A program made the translations under genes and the position numbers. The notes beneath the pieces are model-generated. The model made no database searches and was not told the origin of the DNA. It saw only the letters and a program-made list of their open reading frames with translations. From Mayamaea pseudoterrestris (lineage: Eukaryota), in assembly GCA_027923505.1 (NCBI GenBank), contig BROI01000020.1:248001-312000 (forward strand): DNA of 64,000 nt. The letters run 5' to 3'. Position 1 is the first letter of the stretch, and every line of letters starts with the position of its first letter. Positions 11,174-53,141 of the stretch are shown one piece after another.

Positions 11174-12038
11174 TTACAAATCCTCAAGCCACGGCTGCAT
11201 CACCTCGGCAATCGTATCAATGGCCGCATGACTGACATATTCCTGCTTAACCTTCTTCCATCCCTTGCCAGACCACAACATGACACCAAATGGATTGGTA
11301 TTCTCCTCGACCTCATGCAAGCGGCATTTTGATTTCCAGACGACAAGCTTCAAAAGGACAGTCTTGGCGAGCGCTCGTCTTCAAAAGCGAACGAACTTGG
11401 TCTCCAACTTCGTCCAAGGCGTCTTGACTATTAGGCATCTGCAAGTGGATGAATTTGCGGCACAAGTAGCCATAAACTTGCTCCTTCCACGCATTATGTT
11501 CGAGCTTCTCAATGCGGTCGATCATATTCTCTCCAATGAAGCCAGCAAGGATGGGACGGTCATCCGCCGAGTTTTTAAACACTGCTGCTGGCCAGAAACT
11601 ACCGGTAATAGGCTCTTGTATTTGCAACTGCGAGTCCAAACGAAAACACGGATACGTAGCGACTGGCGCCTGAGTATTGCGAGGCGGATTACGAAATAAA
11701 AAAATGCTCGGCGGCAGCACTCCTTGCTGTTGACGTTCATGGTAGTCATTGAGCAAAGGGACGCCGTCTCCATCTGCAGCCGCAGATGGCGTTCCAAAGC
11801 CGAAACTTGGACGAGCAGCTGGAGGATCTTCGACACCAAAGCCTGCAGCTGCAAACCCTAAGCCTCCTCCAAGCCCGCCTGCGGGCTGCATCAGACCCGC
11901 TGCAACTGGCGCACCAAAGGCACCACCTTGCGGCGCACCGCCATCAGGAGCATCTGGCGGCGGTCCAAATAATCCGCCACCGCGAGCAGCTGGCGCTCCG
12001 AAATTAGAATTGTCGTTGTTCGGAGGATATCCAAACAT
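11174..12038 (-). pseudogene. FG/GA-rich protein with conserved C-terminal LKLVVWKxKC domain, frameshifted near 11375 (pseudogene or assembly error)
   Basis: ATG at 12038. After LLK the paralog-matching sequence LAKTVLLKLVVWKSKCRLHE...WSGKGWKKVKQEYV...MQPWLEDL* continues in another frame to TAA at 11174. Confidence 0.75.
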
Positions 12039-12542
12039 GATCAAGGCAATTAATCGACAAGAGTGGTGCGGTGGGATCCAGGGCGACGCTGCACGGCTGC
12101 TGCCAAAAAGCTGAACCAGTTCCACGATGGCGATTTCCGTTGCGCGAGCTGTAGATGCCGGACTATGTCGTACCGGTTAAAATATCGGAGCAAGTTTGAC
12201 ATCCCCGCGGGAGCGAAACTGGCCACTTGATCGCAGCTTGCTACGGGATTTGGCGACTGAACGAGCGTATAGGTTATTTGTGTCAACTATGTTAATAGCT
12301 TCTTTGTTGACTTATCAGTGTTTTTGGTAAAGTGCCAAGATATCAGCCACACACTCTGAATTCTCCACGATAGACCACATCAACATTGCGTAAGTAGTAT
12401 GTAAGTTTACTGTTAGCACAATTATTGGATCGCCGTCGCAAGAATCCTGTACTCTACTCGAAAACACTTGTTTTCTGTTGCAGTTAAACTCCGACTCCCG
12501 TGTCGCTTTCATGTTTCACTAAGGTAATCTCTTGTCGCTCGC

Positions 12543-13805
12543 TTACTCCTCGAGCCATGGCCGAATGAGTTTCGCAACCGTTTCAATTGCCGCATCGTCA
12601 ACGTAATGCTGCTTGACCTTTTTCCATCCCTTACTGGACCACATGACGGCGCCAAGCGGGTTGGAATTTTCGTCGCTCGAGTGCAAACGACACTTGGCCT
12701 TCCACACCACCAGTTTCAAGACGGAGATCTTGGCAAGCACCTCCAAATGCTTCAGAAGAGCGAGCAACTTGTCTCCAAAGTCTTCATCCATCATGTTCGA
12801 ATCCGACTGCGCCTGGATCGACTTGCGGCTAAAGTAGCCAAAGACCTTCTCCTTCCAGTCATTGTACTCAAGCTTGTTGATGCGATCGACGATTTCCTGC
12901 GCAAGATGTCCGACAAGGACCGAGTCGCCGCCGCCCGTCTTTGACGTGGGGACGACTGGATTGTTGCGGTTAATGGGAGCTCGAAAGGACGAGTGCGACC
13001 CAAAAGGAACGAAGTTTGAAGTTGGAGCTGCAGCTGCAGCTTGAATTGAAGCGAAAGAAAAGCCATTCGATCCAAAAGCAGGTGGCGTAAAGCCAGTTTT
13101 GGTGGCCGGCGGAAAACCAAAAGACGACGCGGTTCCAAATCCGGCTGACTCATGCGGAGCAGGAGCTGTCGCGAAAGGAAAAGGCGAGCGAGGCCGGTCA
13201 AAGCGGTGAGCTGGATTTTTCTTACGTTCAATGAAAGGTATGTGTGGCTGCAGCTGCGGCAACGCTCCAAAACCTGCCGTAGCCCCGGAAAATCCGCCCA
13301 TCCAATTTAGTGACGTACCAGGCTGCGTTCCAAAACCAAATCCTCCAGATGTCGCCGACGGCGCTCCAAAAGCCGAGAGAAAAGGCTGCATTTCAAACCC
13401 AAATCCTCCAGAAGTCGCCAGCGGCGCTCCAAATCCTCCAGAGGTCGTCGAGAATCCATGGTCTCCTCCAAACCCGCCAATGCTGTGCGGAGCTGCGGAT
13501 GTTTCGCCAAAGAGTGAAGGAGCTGGCGCCGCACCAAATAAGCTGCTTGGAGCTGACGTCGTACCAAAACAGCTTGGAGCTGGAGCCGGCAGACCAAGAG
13601 CTACAGACGTCGCCGACGGGAATCCAAATCCTCCAGACGACGCCGCGAATCCAGGGCCTCCTCCAAACCCGCCTAAACTGTTTGGAGCTGCGGATGTTTC
13701 GCCAGAGACGGGAGGAGCCGGCATTGCACCAAATAAAGCGCATATGCTGCTACTTGGAGCTGATGGCGGCGCTCCAAACGAATGTTCATTCTTCCACTTA
13801 GTCAT
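12543..13805 (-). CDS. FG-repeat low-complexity protein with conserved C-terminal domain; tandem paralog of 11174-12038
   Basis: Many GGFG/SLFG repeats. The C-terminus VLKLVVWKAKCRLH...WKKVKQ...LIRPWLEE aligns with the neighbour, and the CTTGATCATG start context is shared. Confidence 0.8.
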   Translation of the reverse strand: MTKWKNEHSFGAPPSAPSSSICALFGAMPAPPVSGETSAAPNSLGGFGGGPGFAASSGGFGFPSATSVALGLPAPAPSCFGTTSAPSSLFGAAPAPSLFGETSAAPHSIGGFGGDHGFSTTSGGFGAPLATSGGFGFEMQPFLSAFGAPSATSGGFGFGTQPGTSLNWMGGFSGATAGFGALPQLQPHIPFIERKKNPAHRFDRPRSPFPFATAPAPHESAGFGTASSFGFPPATKTGFTPPAFGSNGFSFASIQAAAAAPTSNFVPFGSHSSFRAPINRNNPVVPTSKTGGGDSVLVGHLAQEIVDRINKLEYNDWKEKVFGYFSRKSIQAQSDSNMMDEDFGDKLLALLKHLEVLAKISVLKLVVWKAKCRLHSSDENSNPLGAVMWSSKGWKKVKQHYVDDAAIETVAKLIRPWLEE

Positions 13806-14215
13806 GATCAAGACAGTCAGAGACAGTGGTGCGATGAAAGATGAAGACGATGCTGCTGCTGCTGCTGCTGCCAAAATTCTGAATCGGTTCCTCGATGAAG
13901 GCGCATTTTCCGTTGCGTCGGCGCGGTTGCGTGATTTACTGTCGTAGCGGTTCCATAAAGTCGTAGCGGGTCTGGCATTCCTCGCGGCCGCGAAACGTGC
14001 GAGCCATCACTCGTCATCCCAGCTTGCTACCGTACGGGATCAAGAGACTGAGTTGAAAAACGGCTCATCTGGTCCAAGAGTAATACTCATTTACAGTGGT
14101 GTTCGGTAAAAGTTGATTAGGCGTGCAACCACACTCGGAAACGTTTCGACGTACATCTCGCCTCTCGACGAGCCTTGACGACCATCAGCAAACCACTACA
14201 AATTTTGATACTACT

Positions 14216-17200
14216 ATGGAAGCCTTCCTCAAAGACCTTTGTTCCAACAAGAAGAAATCATATGTATGTGATGCACAGGTGCAGTCGGCCCTTGCTGGCC
14301 TCGCCGTCGCTCTGCGTGACGTACTCCCCATTCTAAAATCGTCTCATGCACAAGGCGGATCACCAAACGAAGCAGCTTCACCATTGCAAGAGTCTCCGTC
14401 GTCCTCATCATCACTCATCAATGCATCATGGCTGCTGAAACATTGTTCCACTGTATCATCCGCACTGGGTGCCAACTACTTGGCCGAGTGCATTTACGAC
14501 GTGGCAACGAACGAATCACTCGACGAAGCGTCGCAGCAGGCTGCCCTCTTTGACGTGCTGGGGTCGTCCGATCAGGCCATGGCAGTCTTGTTTGAAATCA
14601 TGCCAGTGATGCGGGAGATTGCTCGTAACATGCGACGAGACGAACTAGTATCGGATGATACAATAGTGCAAAATGGCAATGCTGTTGCAGCCGCACCAAT
14701 CTACGTTGACCTGGAGGAGGAAAAGCGACAATTGCTAGTGCAGGAAGCCAGGGAAGCGGCGCAACTGGCCGAGCTGGCGCGTCAGGAGCTAGAGCACGCC
14801 AATTCGTATACAAACGCGTCAGAAACCTTGACGCACTCGGTCGCTCGACAATCCAATCGCGACGCAACCAAGCAGGTGGAGCGGCTCGAAAAGAAGGCGG
14901 CGCAAGCCTTGGCTCGCGCCAAGGAGCAAGGCGCCATTCTTGACGATGAAATCTTTTGGAAGCTTGATTTGCAGGAGCGAGGACCGGGTGGCTTGATGAA
15001 GAAATCGACAAACGATTTGGAGGCTTTGCATGATTCGCTGCTGGCAAGTGGTGCGAAGCAATACTACAACGATAAGGGGTTGCCGTTTGGAACAATGTTT
15101 GAAAAGGGTAGTGGCTACGAAAAGGTTATTATTCCAGCTGCTCGTCGAGATGAATCAAAGCTACCGGACCGTCTCAAGGTTCGTGAAGTAATGGACGAAG
15201 CCTGCCAGCGCGCGTTTGATGGTACAGAATCACTCAACCCAATGCAATCAACAGTATTTGACGTTGCCTTTTGGGGCAGAGAAAACATGCTTGTGTGTGC
15301 GCCCACGGGAGCTGGTAAAACGAACGTGGCAATGCTAGCGGTAGTGTCGCATTTTCGAGACGTTGGGTTGCTTCCAGGCGCGTCAACGAGCAACCAAACC
15401 ATTATGGAGACTGGACGCAAGGTTGTTTACATTGCACCAATGAAGGCATTGGCGCAGGAAGTTGTCGAAAAATTTTCCTCCAAGTTGAAATCATTGCGGC
15501 TCATCGTGCGCGAACTGACGGGCGACATGCAGCTGACGCGGGCCGAAGCAGAGTCGGCCAATGTCATTGTCACAACTCCGGAAAAATGGGATGTTGTGAC
15601 ACGCAAGTCCGGCACGGATGAACTTTCTCTCGGCAATCAGTGTGGGCTCTTGATTATCGACGAGGTAAGATGACAATAGTGTCCATTGTTATTTGTGTTG
15701 TGATTGTTTCGTCAACGCTGACTCCCCTGCCCTACGGCTCAGGTCCATTTGCTAGCGGATGATCGAGGCGCTGTCATTGAGTCCGTAGTGGCTAGACATC
15801 ACAGGCTTGTGGAAGCGTGTCAACGCCAACTTCGAATTGTGGCCTTGTCGGCAACACTGCCGAATTATATGGATGTTGCAAACTTTCTTCAAGTGCCTCC
15901 TCGAGGAATCTTTTTCTTTGGGCCTGAGTTTCGCCCAGTGCCACTGCAACAGTCAATGATTGGGATCTCAAAGAAAGATCGAAGGCAAAGGGATATAAAA
16001 ATGAATGAGATTTGCTATGACATTGTCATTGATTCGCTACGTCGCGGCTATCAAGTAATGGTATTTGTGCATTCAAGAAAAGGTACTGGTGATACGGCGC
16101 GCGCGTTGGCGGATCTCGCTGCAGCAGATGGCGCTCTCGAAAGTCATTTCGTCACAGCTGGGAAGGACGGTGTTGCGGGAGATGCATATAGTAGATACAA
16201 GGACAAGGTGACCAAGTCGAGGGACCGTCAAGTAGCCATGCATTTTCAGAATGGTATGGGAATTCACCATGCTGGAATGTTGCGTGGCGACCGCAAGCTG
16301 ACGGAGAACATGTTTAGCGACGGTGCCATAAAAATCCTATGCTGCACAGCGTAAGCCATGCACAAACTAGTGATTATATGCTTGTGCTTATTGGTTTTCC
16401 ATTCGTGCACTTACATTCGTCGCCATACTTGCTCGGTTTTCTAAAATGACAGCGTAAGTTTTCGTTGGATGTCGTGCATCTTCTCGTAAAAGCGTGCACT
16501 CACCCTGCTTATCACTTCATCAACTACCGGCAGACGCTAGCATGGGGAATTAACCTCCCGGCGCACACGTAGGAATATTGGTGCTGTATTTTTTTAACCA
16601 AACAATAGCGGTGCTTGATTCTCACAACAGCGTCACTCTTGCTGTACAACAGGGTTATAATAAAAGGAACAGAAGTGTACAACCCTGAGAAGGGTGGCGC
16701 CGTCGATCTATCAATTTTGGATGTGCAACAAATTTTTGGACGAGCTGGTCGACCGCAGTTTGACTCTTCGGGTGAAGCAACTTTAATAACGTCGTATGAC
16801 GCTTATCAGCGATACATAACAAAACTTGTCCGTGCCGTCCCAATCGAGTCAAATTTTATCAAACAACTTCCAGATCATTTGAACGCAGAGATTGTGGGTG
16901 GAACCGTGTCGACCATACAAGAAGCCGTGCAATGGCTTGGATACACGTACCTGCATATCAGAATGCTTGGCAATCCTCTGGCGTACGGAATTAAACCCGA
17001 GGAGAAGAATGATGATCCAACGCTTGTGTCTCGCCGCCGCGAGCTCATCGTGCATGCCGCGAAGCATCTTAGTGCCACTAAGATGATCGCCTATGCACAA
17101 GCATCCGGCAATTTGTCTGCCAGAGAAATGGGACGAACAGCCGCTCACTTTTACGTTCAATCCGAGAGTGTGGCGACGTTTAATGACCAGATGGGAAGTA

Positions 17201-20200
17201 ACAAAAATCTTTCGAATGCATCCCTTGTTCACACCATTGCATCGGCTAGCGAGTTTCAGAATATGAAAGTGCGGCAAGAAGAACTGGAGGAACTTGAGAA
17301 GATTGCCGGCAATTGTCCCTTGGAGATTAGAGGTGCTGGACTTGATGATGGGGGCAGAGGCCTCGTTACTAGTGCCACCGACAAGGCCTTCCTGCTAATT
17401 CAGGCCTACATATCAAAGGAACGGATAACTAGTTTTACACTCATATCAGACGTTAATTATATCTCGGCGAACGCTGGACGTATCGCGCGGGCGCTTTTTG
17501 AGATGTGTCTCAAGCAAGGTGATGCTGGGTCAGCAATGAAACTCTTACGGATTGCGAAGAGCGTCGATAATCGAATCTGGTGGTTTCAAACACCATTACG
17601 ACAGTTTGAAGGCGAGATTCGTGATAATGCGCTTCTACATCTCGAAAAGGCCGTCAGCTCCGAATACAGTGGGCTTGCGTCAGTCACGTCTTTGCTCGAC
17701 CTGCACCCAAACGAGGTTGGTAGCCTGTGTCATTGGCACAAAGGTGGTGAGAAAGTACAAAGTTTGATCCGTATGCTTCCACAATTTGAAGTGGATTGTC
17801 GTGTATTGCCTGTAACAGGTAGTATACTCAAATTCCACGTCACATTGACGCCGACGTTTGTTTGGCATGGACGATGGCATGGGGGCGGACAATCATTTTG
17901 GTTCTGGATCGAGAACACTGAGAGTAAGCGCATCTACCACCATGAGCAGTTCACACTGACAAAAGCAAAGAGTGCAAGCTCATTTGCGATTGATGCCATG
18001 GCACCAATTTTTGGCGAGTCAGGCCAATTTGTGGTAAAGATCATATCCGACTCGTGGGTCGGTGTTGAGCAGGTTGTACCTATTTCTATTGAAGAATCTC
18101 AGTTACCCAGGCAAGACGAAGTGTTGACGAAGCTTCAAGATTTGACTCCCCTTCCGACGTCGGCTTTACAAAATGCTGCTTATGAAAAATTGTATCCGTT
18201 TCATGCATTCAACCCGATTCAGACGCAATTATTTCATGTTCTCTACCATACGGATTCTCCCGTTCTGCTGGGTGCGCCAACAGGAAGTGGCAAGACAATC
18301 GTTGCAGAGTTAGCTCTTCTCCGACTGAAGAAACTCCGACCCTCAAGCATCTGCGTTTACATTGCTCCACTAAAGGCGCTTGCCCGAGAGAGACTGAAGG
18401 ATTGGCAGCGACGACTTGGTGCGCCACCCCTTAACTGGAACGTCTTGGAATTGTCGGGTGATACGCATCATGATTTGTCACGGCTGGAACGATCGGATGT
18501 GCTGATATGCACACCTGAAAAATGGGATCTTCTCTCACGCGGATGGCGAGGTTTTCAAACGGGGGGCGCCGTTAAGGAAAAATCGTTCGTGAAACGTGTG
18601 GGCCTTCTCGTGATAGACGAAGGTAAGCTAGTGTTCACTATGCACTAGTGATCACCAGTATTGCATTCAACTCAACCTTTCCTATTCGTTAAAGTGCACT
18701 TGCTCGGCGAAGAAAGAGGAGCTGTCCTCGAAGCCATTGTTAGTAGGACCCGGTTTATTTCTCGAACGCTGCAACAATCGAAAGGGCCGAAGGACGAGGA
18801 AGAAACACGTATTGTCGGACTTTCCACGTCCCTTGCGAACGCCGTCGATTTAGGTGCTTGGATTGGCATTGAGACAGAAAGTATGAGTTCGAGCAACCGA
18901 CAAGGTCTGTTTAATTTTTCTCAATATGTTAGGCCGATACCCATCGCGGTGCACGTCCAGGGATTTTCCGGCAAGCATTATTGCCCCAGAATGGCAACGA
19001 TGAACAAGCCTTGCTATGCGGCTATAAAGGACTACGCTCCGACAAAACCAACTCTTATATTTGTTGCCTCGCGTCGCCAGACTCGTCTTACGGCAATTGA
19101 CTTAATCAGCTATGCAGCAAGTGATGAACAGCCTATGTCCTTTCTGGACTGTAGCCAAGACTACATCGAATCGGTTGCCGAGAATATCCGCGACGAGTCA
19201 TTACGCCATACGCTGACGTTTGGCATCGGTTTGCACCATGCGGGCCTTACTTCTGCTGATCGAGAGGTTGTTGAGCGTTTATTTTTAGAAGGTCGGATTC
19301 GTGTTTTGGTGGCAACTGCGTAAGTCATTGATAGTGTCATCGTTTGACGAGTAACTTCTTGCGCTGATCCATTTTTCTCTTCCTGTAGTACCCTTGCATG
19401 GGGCCTGAATTTGCCCGGACGATTATGCATTGTTAAAGGAACTGAATATTTTGATGGGAAGTCTTCGCGTTACGTCGATTATCCCTTGACTGATGTTTTG
19501 CAGATGATCGGTCGCGCTGGCAGGCCAGGGTTTGATACGCAAGCATTCGCTGTGGTAATGGCTACTGAAGACAAGAAGAATTTCTATAAGAAGTTTTTGG
19601 TGAGCGAACGTTTTTCTCTGCTTGCTATGAGCGCACACATGTTTACATACTAACCCTTGCGCGTCAATTTTACCGTAGTATACCTCGTTTCCAGTGGAGT
19701 CTTGTCTACAAGATAAATTATGCGAAAACATTAATGCTGAAATTGCAAGTGGGACGATATCAACGACGGTGGATGCGCTGGGTTATTTGTCGTGGACATT
19801 CTTTGCGCGCCGGGTAAAAGCCAACCCATCTTATTATGGCGCCAAGTCATCCGACGACGATGACGTCGAAGAGTTTCTCTTTTCCACTGTAAAAGACACG
19901 CTGGCCCAACTTGACGAGAGCGGCTGCATCGTTACTCAGCTAAACGACGACACTGCCCAGGTTAAGTCTACTTCATTGTCTATTGCAGCTGCGAGTTATT
20001 ATCTCAGCCATCGCACACCAAAACAAATGCAGTTTGGCGTCAAAGAAGGTCGACGCATTGTTCTGAACTATCTTGAAGAAGAAACAAATTCCAAAGTCAG
20101 CGACTCCCTTAAAACGAGTTTGAGTTCATTTGAACGCTCGCCACGCATCGACGAAGTTGCATCCGGATGGCTGTTGTACACGCTCTGCTCAACACATGAG

Positions 20201-21094
20201 TTTGACGAACACCCTGTCCGCCATAATGAGGAGCATTTAAACGAGGAGCTAAGCCGTAGTCTCATGTGGGGCCCAGACATGACGATGCTGCTTTCCGGTC
20301 GCCGAAGTTACAATATTGAGATCTTCCAAGATCCTCACACAAAATGCTTTTTGCTACTGCAAGCCTATTTGCAGCGTGCCAAGCTTCCGATCACCGACTA
20401 CGTGAACGATACAATGAGCGTGGTCGACAATGTACCCCGTCTGCTAGCGGCGATGGAGTATATCGCTTGCCAGGACAAGGAGCAGCCAGGCAGCTTCGAG
20501 TTGCTGACGCAATTTTCTCGAACGCGACAATTCGTTGCAACCAAAAGTACACCACAGAGCGACCCCGTGTTGCTCCTAGTTGGTGCTCCTGAGTTTACGG
20601 TAAACAAGCAGAAGAACAGCAACCATATCACTTCTTTACGAGAAATTCGCGCGATGCCACGTGCAACTGCTGTGAATACCATTTCACAATTGACGCGTTT
20701 GAACAAGAAGAGAGTTGATGTGGCCATCACCTCCCTTTTTAGATTACCACTCGTCAACTTGAATAAGTGTGCGGTCTCTCATCATGTCGATAAGGCGACC
20801 GGAAAGGCAGTCGGCAAGCTTGAAATGCATTTACAGATGGAACGCCAACGAGACAAGGCCGACAATGAAGTTTCCTTGACGATTCTTCTTGGTAGCTATC
20901 ACCAAAAGATGCTTTTGGGACAGTCATCGATCAGAATCGACAGGTCGGGGAAATTCGATGTAGTCCGAACGGTCGAGTTTGATTGGAACAGGGCTAATGC
21001 CGATGGTGGAGCGGAGGGTGGACGAATGATTATTCGACTATTGTTTGATAACATACGAGGGCTCGATGCTGAAATGCTGATTAGCCTGACGTAA
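14216..21094 (+). CDS. ASCC3: Ski2-like double-cassette helicase ASCC3/Slh1 (2x DExH + Sec63)
   Basis: Motifs [22 protein letters not shown] and [12 protein letters not shown], then a second cassette [21 protein letters not shown] and [12 protein letters not shown]. Introns: 15665-15742, 16351-16452, 16454-16533, 16569-16652, 18623-18694, 19320-19388, 19600-19678. Confidence 0.92.
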
Positions 21095-52113: not shown

Positions 52114-53141
52114 TATATTGAAAGAGTGCTTCCACCTCCATCCAGCAGTGCAGGAAAAACAGGGCCACCTTGTGCAAAAACGCAGTCCTGTAAATTGTGT
52201 GCGTGTGTGCCCTTGCTGCCTGTTTCTTCGGACTCGGCTTACAGATTGCCGACAAGCTACCTCGCTTCGCTTTCGCACTTCTAGCTGCCTACACCTTCGT
52301 CGAAATTAGCACCTCGTCTCCCAGCAAACCTCTATGCGAGTTGCAACAAGGTATTGGACAAAATATTGCGTGAAGTGTGCGGTGTGAAATGAAGTGTGCT
52401 TTTTGCTCCCGGCGAAGTTTCGTCCGAACGGCGCTAGTCTTGGTCCGACCAATCCCGACGGTGCAAAAGTCATAGTTCGATGAGGCTTATAAAATCTCTT
52501 AATGTCTTTGCAATACATACGTCATTGTTGCTATTGCCTGGTCATTTTGGTCGGCTTTTCTTATTGCCTTCATTTGTTTCTCGCGTCATGTGATCACGTG
52601 GTGTCGTGTTATGCCCGGACTTCGACATTCGTTCAAGCGGGTTGCGCACATGCAAAGGCTATCACATCTGCATCATCAACCAGCAATGGGTATAACAGGG
52701 TGTAAGCATGGTTTTCGCATCAATATACGGTAGCGATCCTCATCACTTGACGAGTATACAATCGACAGCGAAACATACAGTTTGGGAAAGTGTTAACTGT
52801 AAGGTGCAACAGTAACGTATCTGCTAAATAGCAGCAGTATACCTCACAGTGATGCTGCGACTACCGGCAGTAGCCAAAAAAGGCTTATGCTGGTCTGCTT
52901 TCATGTAAAGAGAAATACTATATTGGTATAATAAACTCAATTTTCCGCCTTCTATTGCTTGTGATGGTTTTTAGGCGACGATAAAATGCCGGGAATACAA
53001 TCCGTCGGACCGGTTACCGACATTGTGACGTTTCGTACGATTGCTTTAAAAAAATGGCGGCCAACCATGATGGCAGAATCGTCCGTCGAACGCTATATTT
53101 TGCGATTGCTACAAACAAACTTTAAGTGCACTTACACTACG

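Follow-up and report, generated by a model that had tools for sequence, protein, structure and literature searches.

A probable one-nucleotide exon in an ASCC3/Slh1-like helicase gene of the diatom Mayamaea pseudoterrestris

We analyzed a 64,000-nucleotide stretch of the Mayamaea pseudoterrestris genome (contig BROI01000020.1, positions 248,001 to 312,000; hereafter the window) that contains a plus-strand gene with a candidate exon of a single nucleotide (nt), the C at position 16453. An exon model built from plus-strand open reading frame (ORF) pieces and from splice sites read off the sequence places the gene at 14216–21094, with eight exons at 14216–15664, 15743–16350, 16453, 16534–16568, 16653–18622, 18695–19319, 19389–19599, and 19679–21094. 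Joining these exons by script gives a 6315-nt coding sequence for a protein of 2104 amino acids (aa), and the joined exons form one ORF with only a terminal stop once the C is included. The seven introns measure, in order, 78, 102, 80, 84, 72, 69, and 79 nt; all are GT-AG introns and all have G at donor position +5.

The encoded protein has the tandem Ski2-like architecture of Brr2 and ASCC3, with two DEAD, winged-helix, and Sec63 cassettes; each of the Pfam domains DEAD, wHTH (winged helix), and Sec63 was found twice across the exon translations. Its best solved relative is human ASCC3 (8alz_B; 692 bits, against 644 for human Brr2), and yeast Slh1 scores 623 bits against about 461 for yeast Brr2. 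The source names of homologs are mostly ASCC3 or DExH14, and a few say U5 snRNP helicase. On these bit scores and source names, the gene most resembles an ASCC3/Slh1-like tandem Ski2-type RNA helicase.

Evidence on splicing of the locus came from Logan contigs (not raw reads) of four coded runs from one study, X1–X4, aligned over the region 15500–18800. No run is recorded as RNA; X1, X2, and X4 were taken as RNA from their spliced joints and empty intron bins. The features around the candidate exon, all on the plus strand, are as follows.

15743..16350, plus strand: exon 2, ending TGC TGC ACA GC, where GC is the first two bases of the alanine codon of the motif TATLAWG; RNA joints at 15662/15741 (cut +2) and 16350/16534.
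16351..16452, plus strand: upstream flanking intron, 102 nt, GTAAGC...TTTTCTAAAATGACAG; skipped in X1, X2, and X4 and covered in X3.
16453, plus strand: probable single-nucleotide exon C, third base of the alanine codon GCC, with AG before it and GTAAGT after it; seen as an extra C in X1, X2, and X4.
16454..16533, plus strand: downstream flanking intron, 80 nt, GTAAGT...CTACCGGCAG; skipped in X1, X2, and X4, its donor at 16454 also being used in the public model of the C-terminal part.
16534..16568, plus strand: 35-nt exon, starting ACG CTA GCA TGG and encoding 11 residues and the first two bases of a threonine codon.
16569..16652, plus strand: next intron, 84 nt, GTAGGA...ACAACAG; joint 16568/16653 with GT..AG and no letters between.
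16493, plus strand: other possible but improbable source of the C, in the context AAAAG|C|GTGCAC.
19320..19388, plus strand: intron of the second cassette, ACT GC|gtaagt...tag|T ACC CTT, at the same position and phase but with the following exon supplying the third codon base.

Exon 2 ends ...TGC TGC ACA GC|GTAAGC at 16350/16351, and the next recognizable exon starts at 16534, directly after an acceptor (...CCGGCAG) that ends at 16533. The gap between them, 16351–16533, is 183 nt long and, taken as a single intron, is out of line with the rest of the gene. Joining exon 2 straight to 16534 breaks the frame, giving ...ILCCTAR* with a stop at residue 687. Within the gap, 16449–16459 reads ACAG-C-GTAAGT, with AG at 16451–16452, C at 16453, and GTAAGT at 16454–16459. 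Splicing at these sites divides the gap into introns of 102 and 80 nt, in line with the other five introns of the gene (69–84 nt). The same C gives GCC ACG, which restores TATLAWG and the 2104-aa ORF. In all of these respects, the sequence agrees with an original prediction, made from the letters of this DNA, that 16453 is a one-base exon of an ASCC3 gene. A GTAAGT donor occurs in only two of the gene's seven introns.

The pattern AG-N-GTAAGT, in the form AGNGTAAGT, is found twice in the window on both strands together, against an expectation of 1.05, and two or more copies arose in 30 of 100 shuffles; the pattern is not enriched across the window. By our own arithmetic, the number expected inside the 183-nt gap on the plus strand is about 1.05 × 183/128000, or 0.0015. 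The second match (53130–53138, minus strand) was set aside as chance and lies antisense to a plus-strand coding ORF.

The spliced contigs supply direct evidence for one additional base. Contigs of X1, X2, and X4 skip 16351–16533 with GT..AG ends and join 16350 to 16534 with exactly one extra letter, a C. The cDNA that had been foreseen, ...TGCACAGC-C-ACGCTAGCATGG, is what these three runs contain, and a base other than C was found at the joint in none of them. Among the joints found, only 16350/16534 carries letters that belong to neither side. Three other introns served as controls: 15665–15742 is skipped in X1, X2, and X4 (the X4 contig having only 26 letters on its shorter side), 16569–16652 is skipped in the same three runs, and 18623–18694 is skipped in X2 and X4, X1 having no cover there. 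The 35-nt exon appears as a piece with 0 other letters in record 2 of X1 and forms a 35-letter side at both of its joints in X1, X2, and X4. Depth is 0 in the bin 16388–16498 for all three spliced runs.

X3 behaves as DNA, with no joints, a depth of about 34 across the gap, and 34–37 in the boundary bins. Insertions are listed for it at 15723, 16588, and 16596 only, with none at 16350 or 16533; deletions are listed at 16437 (1 nt) and 16526 (6 nt). Because genomic 16351 and 16533 are both G, a shifted boundary cannot yield a C. Together, the extra C at the joint and the lack of a listed boundary insertion in X3 indicate that the mRNA reads ...ACA GCC ACG CTA.... On the second allele in X3, three substitutions and the 1-nt deletion fall within 16425–16443, inside the final 30 nt of the upstream intron, and the 6-nt deletion (16526–16531) comes close ahead of the downstream acceptor. 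The 40 listed differences all fall outside 16444–16525, 57 more lying beyond the list.

Protein conservation likewise calls for the base. A search with the exon 2 protein returned 1478 matches at E ≤ 1e-10, and among the best 120 of these, which were listed, 118 carry the motif after ...C(C/T)T: 117 read TATLAWG and one reads TSTLAWG (P0087). None of these 118 listed homologs reaching the motif has a one-residue deletion there. The two exceptions among the 120, P0001 and P0029, end before the motif. A strict pattern check matched 112, and the other six fail only at residues further upstream. Since the homologs keep the motif without deletion, the protein needs exactly one more base, making a GCN alanine codon.

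What defines a one-nucleotide exon is a combination of features, four of which can be located here. A base in spliced RNA that adjoins neither flanking exon in the genome was found in X1, X2, and X4. The matching genomic base between AG and GT within the gap lies at 16453, with a weaker second site at 16493. Boundary sequence from which no base has been dropped was found in X3, possibly the assembly's own sample, and in two assembled copies of the gene whose models both end ...CCTA. The need of the frame for the base is seen in the 2104-aa ORF as against the stop at residue 687, and the conserved protein feature that it restores is seen in 118 of the 120 listed homologs. We conclude that the C at 16453 is very probably a real, constitutively included one-nucleotide exon of a diatom ASCC3/Slh1-like helicase gene.

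Public annotation of the locus bears the mark of the missed base. Through exact look-ups and protein comparisons, we identified two NCBI models from M. pseudoterrestris that the window encodes, of 686 aa (P0219) and 1409 aa (P0121), each described as a hypothetical protein. The 686-aa model has 0 differences from the model presented here and ends ...ILCCTA, reading GCG TAA into the intron, while the 1409-aa model begins MTA and then continues VIIKG.... By our reading of the sequence, MTA would come from the in-intron ATG ACA GC at 16446–16453, with the donor at 16454 spliced to 16653 and the 35-nt exon skipped. Such an in-intron start is an artefact of gene prediction. It is shared by a second copy of the gene on another contig, whose models (P0001 and P0220) are divided at the same place, again with ...CCTA at the end of one and MTA at the beginning of the other. 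Between the copies, 49 of 686 and 36 of 1409 residues differ, and both keep the GC|GTAA exon end. If the MTA reading applies there too, the second copy would also keep ATGACAGC and the donor. The two copies may be haplotypes; the M. pseudoterrestris genome paper, in the parts used here, describes a diploid genome with 2.97% heterogeneity. For want of one base, the annotation thus cuts one gene into two false genes, at exactly this point and in both copies.

Several points weigh against a one-nucleotide exon at 16453, or limit how far the data reach. RNA support comes from contigs of one study whose RNA nature is itself deduced, and these contigs mix two alleles, so that the joint is not assignable to one allele. 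Rare skipped isoforms would stay hidden in contigs, and no splicing intermediates were seen in the contigs. X3 may be the sample behind the assembly, in which case it is not independent proof of the genome sequence. The identity of the second allele over 16451–16459 is drawn solely from the MTA start of its gene model, 57 single-letter differences being unlisted. A second possible source for the base must be added, since a relaxed search for AG-N-G[TC] gives two sites in the gap, 16453 and 16493, and the enclosed base is C in each. Were 16493 the source, the introns would be 16351–16492 (142 nt) and 16494–16533 (40 nt), and the mRNA would be the same, so that the contigs cannot separate the two sites. 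Its donor, GTGCAC, however, has C at +4 and lacks the G at +5 that all seven introns of the model have; its acceptor, CGTAAAAG, is purine-rich and has no pyrimidine tract; and the 40-nt downstream intron compares with 69–102 nt for the seven. The public gene predictor, moreover, picked the donor at 16454 in both copies. We consider 16493 an improbable source of the C and 16453 in all likelihood the true one. Of the original proposal, the single extra C in spliced RNA is established, while its assignment to 16453 rather than 16493 is inferred.

Two further explanations dispense with an exon inside the gap. One is a single 183-nt intron, with the C either dropped from the assembly at the boundary or added to the RNA without a template, by editing or insertion. 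Single bases can be lost in long-read assemblies, X3 may come from the same sample as the assembly, and C-insertion editing occurs in some organelles. Yet X3 covers both gap boundaries at a depth of 34–37 with no insertion listed there, which also answers the earlier concern that a base might be missing from the assembly at the junction. Two separately assembled copies both lead to models ending ...CCTA, that is, GCG TAA at the boundary, and AG stands directly before ACG even on the allele that lacks 6 nt at 16526. The well-placed AG|C|GTAAGT in the gap would also have to be a coincidence, with an expectation of about 0.0015, and we regard a single intron as very improbable. The other explanation invokes a GC donor at 16349 (ACA|GCGTAAG) joined to ACG. 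GC-AG introns exist, and the product would be in frame with a protein one residue shorter, reading CCTTLAWG. All three spliced runs, however, join at 16350 and not at 16348, and they do so with the extra C; the ACA-ACG form is absent from the spliced contigs. Of the 118 listed homologs extending to the motif, not one shows the implied deletion. As the main form, the GC donor is refuted by the spliced contigs, and we give it practically no credence.

For the one-nucleotide exon at 16453, we propose the following mechanism. The pre-mRNA would contain a pair of short GT-AG introns of ordinary kind (102 and 80 nt), with a single base between them. Because the acceptor AG and the donor GTAAGT stand one base apart, two spliceosomes cannot sit there together and the exon is not definable as a unit. 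Since the sites cannot be occupied jointly, intron removal must be sequential and rest on intron definition, and such splicing is the most likely course. In a genome whose introns measure 70–100 nt, each intron would be recognized across itself, and removal could proceed in either order. The first removal would leave the C in a normal-sized exon beside the remaining intron, much as at a recursive splice site but with one base retained. The perfect intronic GTAAGT probably offsets the absent exonic match to U1, the −1 base being C. The product, ACA GCC ACG, would complete the invariant TATLAWG of the first helicase cassette. An RNA structure that might join the sites is unsupported: the predicted fold has a minimum free energy of −49.1 kcal/mol (z −0.60), and 56 of 200 shuffled sequences are at least as stable.

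Nuclear exons of one base have been documented in plants (APC11 and VPS55) and in Fusarium (CYP621A), and the diatom exon is a new example of this kind. In Arabidopsis thaliana, a single-nucleotide exon of APC11 was demonstrated by mutation of the base (Guo and Liu, 2015, PMC4674806). There, as here, the cDNA base adjoins neither neighboring exon in the genome and has AG before it and GT after it, within a stretch that annotation had treated as one intron. In both genes the reading frame depends on the base, and the annotation was wrong. The APC11 authors also propose intron definition and one-after-another, recursive-like removal (PMC4674806). The two cases differ in the base (A in APC11, C in M. 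pseudoterrestris), in the length of the gap (422 and 183 nt), and in the host gene (a small one for a ubiquitin ligase, and one for a 2104-aa helicase); the APC11 exon is also proven by mutation, whereas the diatom exon is known from sequence and contigs. Parts of a survey of land plants (Yu et al., 2022, PMC8831610) extend the comparison. They describe the APC11 base as conserved across land plants and the 1-nt microexons of VPS55 and APC11 as missing, like the present one, from reference annotations. The plant exons have a conserved strong GTRAGT donor, which the GTAAGT here matches, and RNA-seq aligners fail on them unless the exon is supplied (parts of PMC8831610). According to the same parts of that survey, the plant exons are of great age and alternative inclusion occurs in some of them, whereas in M. 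pseudoterrestris the included form alone was seen, in contigs only.

Fusarium CYP621A was found by the same logic as used here: out-of-phase exon ends in an invariant motif, an intron of about twice the usual length, a mid-intron AG-N-GT, and SRA transcripts (parts of Nelson and Syed, 2026, PMC12940212). Its base, too, lies inside a codon of a conserved motif. The one-nucleotide exon is common to 20 Fusarium orthologs, and the authors, in the parts of the article used here, call it the second example. The CYP621A exon is a G (AGGGT) and fits both splice consensus sequences (parts of PMC12940212), whereas the C in M. pseudoterrestris fits neither. It follows from this lack of fit that recognition of the C must rest on intronic signals.

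The Drosophila consensus for recursive splice sites is AG|GTAAGT. As at a recursive splice site or ratchet point, the acceptor at 16452 adjoins a strong donor that is ready for a second step (PMC4674806; parts of PMC6224609). At recursive sites no base remains in the mRNA, and the introns served are very long; here one base is kept and the introns measure 102 and 80 nt. A zero-nucleotide recursive splice site was rejected as the identity of this element on the ground that the base between AG and GT is retained and the introns are short; the element resembles such a site in its working only. A one-base exon is also described for placozoan mitochondrial cox1, but in a system of organellar trans-spliced introns, not of nuclear spliceosomal GT-AG introns (parts of PMC5436844). 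Our literature search found no report of a one-base exon for a diatom or any other stramenopile, which is not proof of absence. Among the papers listed on intron gain in diatoms, none was relevant, and the word 'intron' is absent from the main text of the Mayamaea genome paper. The M. pseudoterrestris exon is set apart by its host group, its non-consensus exonic base, its apparent youth, and the split gene in public annotation.

We looked for the same structure in relatives among 78 fetched metagenome loci, of which we examined the 50 with a match reaching residue 202 (the end of exon 2) and dropped the remaining 28. None of the 50 breaks in the alanine codon, and the structure was found in no relative's DNA. 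Forty-one of the 50 read through the next 20 codons, and the other nine break later. In these nine (L002, L008, L010–L013, L020, L021, and L031), introns follow ATL, LAW, LAWG, or LAWG plus two residues, at least four positions in all. This short conserved stretch appears from these sequences to be an intron hot spot in diatom and stramenopile lineages. The nearest non-Mayamaea proteins among the matches listed, P0002 and P0003 (81% identical), read through the TATLAWG of both cassettes in one long ORF. A 72% identical diatom ORF known as protein only (P0029) reads ...VLCCT and then GKPSK, which back-translates to G|GTAAGCC, as if an intron started there one base earlier (phase 1) than in the window. 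Taken together, the sequences make the structure look specific to the Mayamaea lineage, where it is known in two copies of one species.

The two helicase cassettes of the gene share intron places. Introns 16351–16452 and 19320–19388 both fall, in phase 2, in the alanine codon of TATLAWG, and the DEVH boxes carry introns at 15665–15742 (GAG|GTC, phase 0) and 18623–18694 (GAA G|TG, phase 1). The long ORFs of P0002 and P0003 suggest that the DEVH-box introns, too, are absent from those relatives. Matching introns in the two cassettes, set beside these relatives, point either to gains made in parallel where the sequences are alike or to exchange from one cassette to the other, as far as their positions can indicate.

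Short repeats surround the exon. In the window, the decamer ACAGCGTAAG has exactly two occurrences, 16346–16355 (exon end and donor) and 16449–16458 (acceptor, C, and donor), with a spacing of 103 nt. Its expectation is 0.09, and two copies arose in 0 of 100 shuffles; because it consists largely of splice consensus, the repeat is only a hint of a duplicated junction or of a second intron gained beside the first. AGCGT occurs four times within 282 nt (also at 16491 and 16629), where about 0.25 would be expected per 282 nt given 56 on the whole plus strand. ACAGCGT occurs three times within 288 nt, out of six in the window on both strands, and ACAACAG is found twice near the end of the intron 16569–16652.

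A young, lineage-specific origin of the 1-nt exon is a tentative scenario, which we hold to be possible rather than probable. A duplication of the exon–intron junction, or the gain of another intron one base from the existing one, would have been followed by a compensating one-base loss at the next exon, restoring the frame. A similar rescue idea has been put forward for Fusarium CYP621A (parts of Nelson and Syed, PMC12940212). An introner family or intron duplication was rejected as the origin, there being no significant similarity among introns and no copies in the window. In global alignments of the seven introns (21 pairs), the best z was 3.09, with 3 of 300 shuffles as good, which is not significant. 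Global alignment of the upstream against the downstream flanking intron gave z −0.01, and local alignment of the two found only the 11-mer CGTGCACT(T/C)AC, which 229 of 2000 shuffles equaled or bettered. Further copies within the window were found for none of the seven introns.

Elsewhere in the window, the minus-strand ORFs 11313–12176 and 12543–14006 are long, neighbor each other, are rich in FG/GG repeats, and share end segments such as ...LKLVVWK(S/A)KCRLH.... Their sequences suggest tandem paralogs, perhaps nucleoporin-like.

These findings correct the annotation: the adjacent 686- and 1409-aa models, in each of two copies, represent one 2104-aa helicase. They also extend the very short list of nuclear one-base exons to a third major eukaryotic group, the stramenopiles. 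The non-consensus C argues that intronic signals alone suffice for recognition of such an exon. Close relatives without the structure and the plain intron in the second cassette make this a good locus for asking how such exons arise. Others might be screened for as neighboring half-protein models with out-of-phase ends and an intron of about twice the usual length. If the young origin is true, no 1-nt exon would have been caught so soon after its birth before, and the case would suggest that the intron-defining spliceosomes of diatoms tolerate such exons readily, with more of them hidden behind split gene models.

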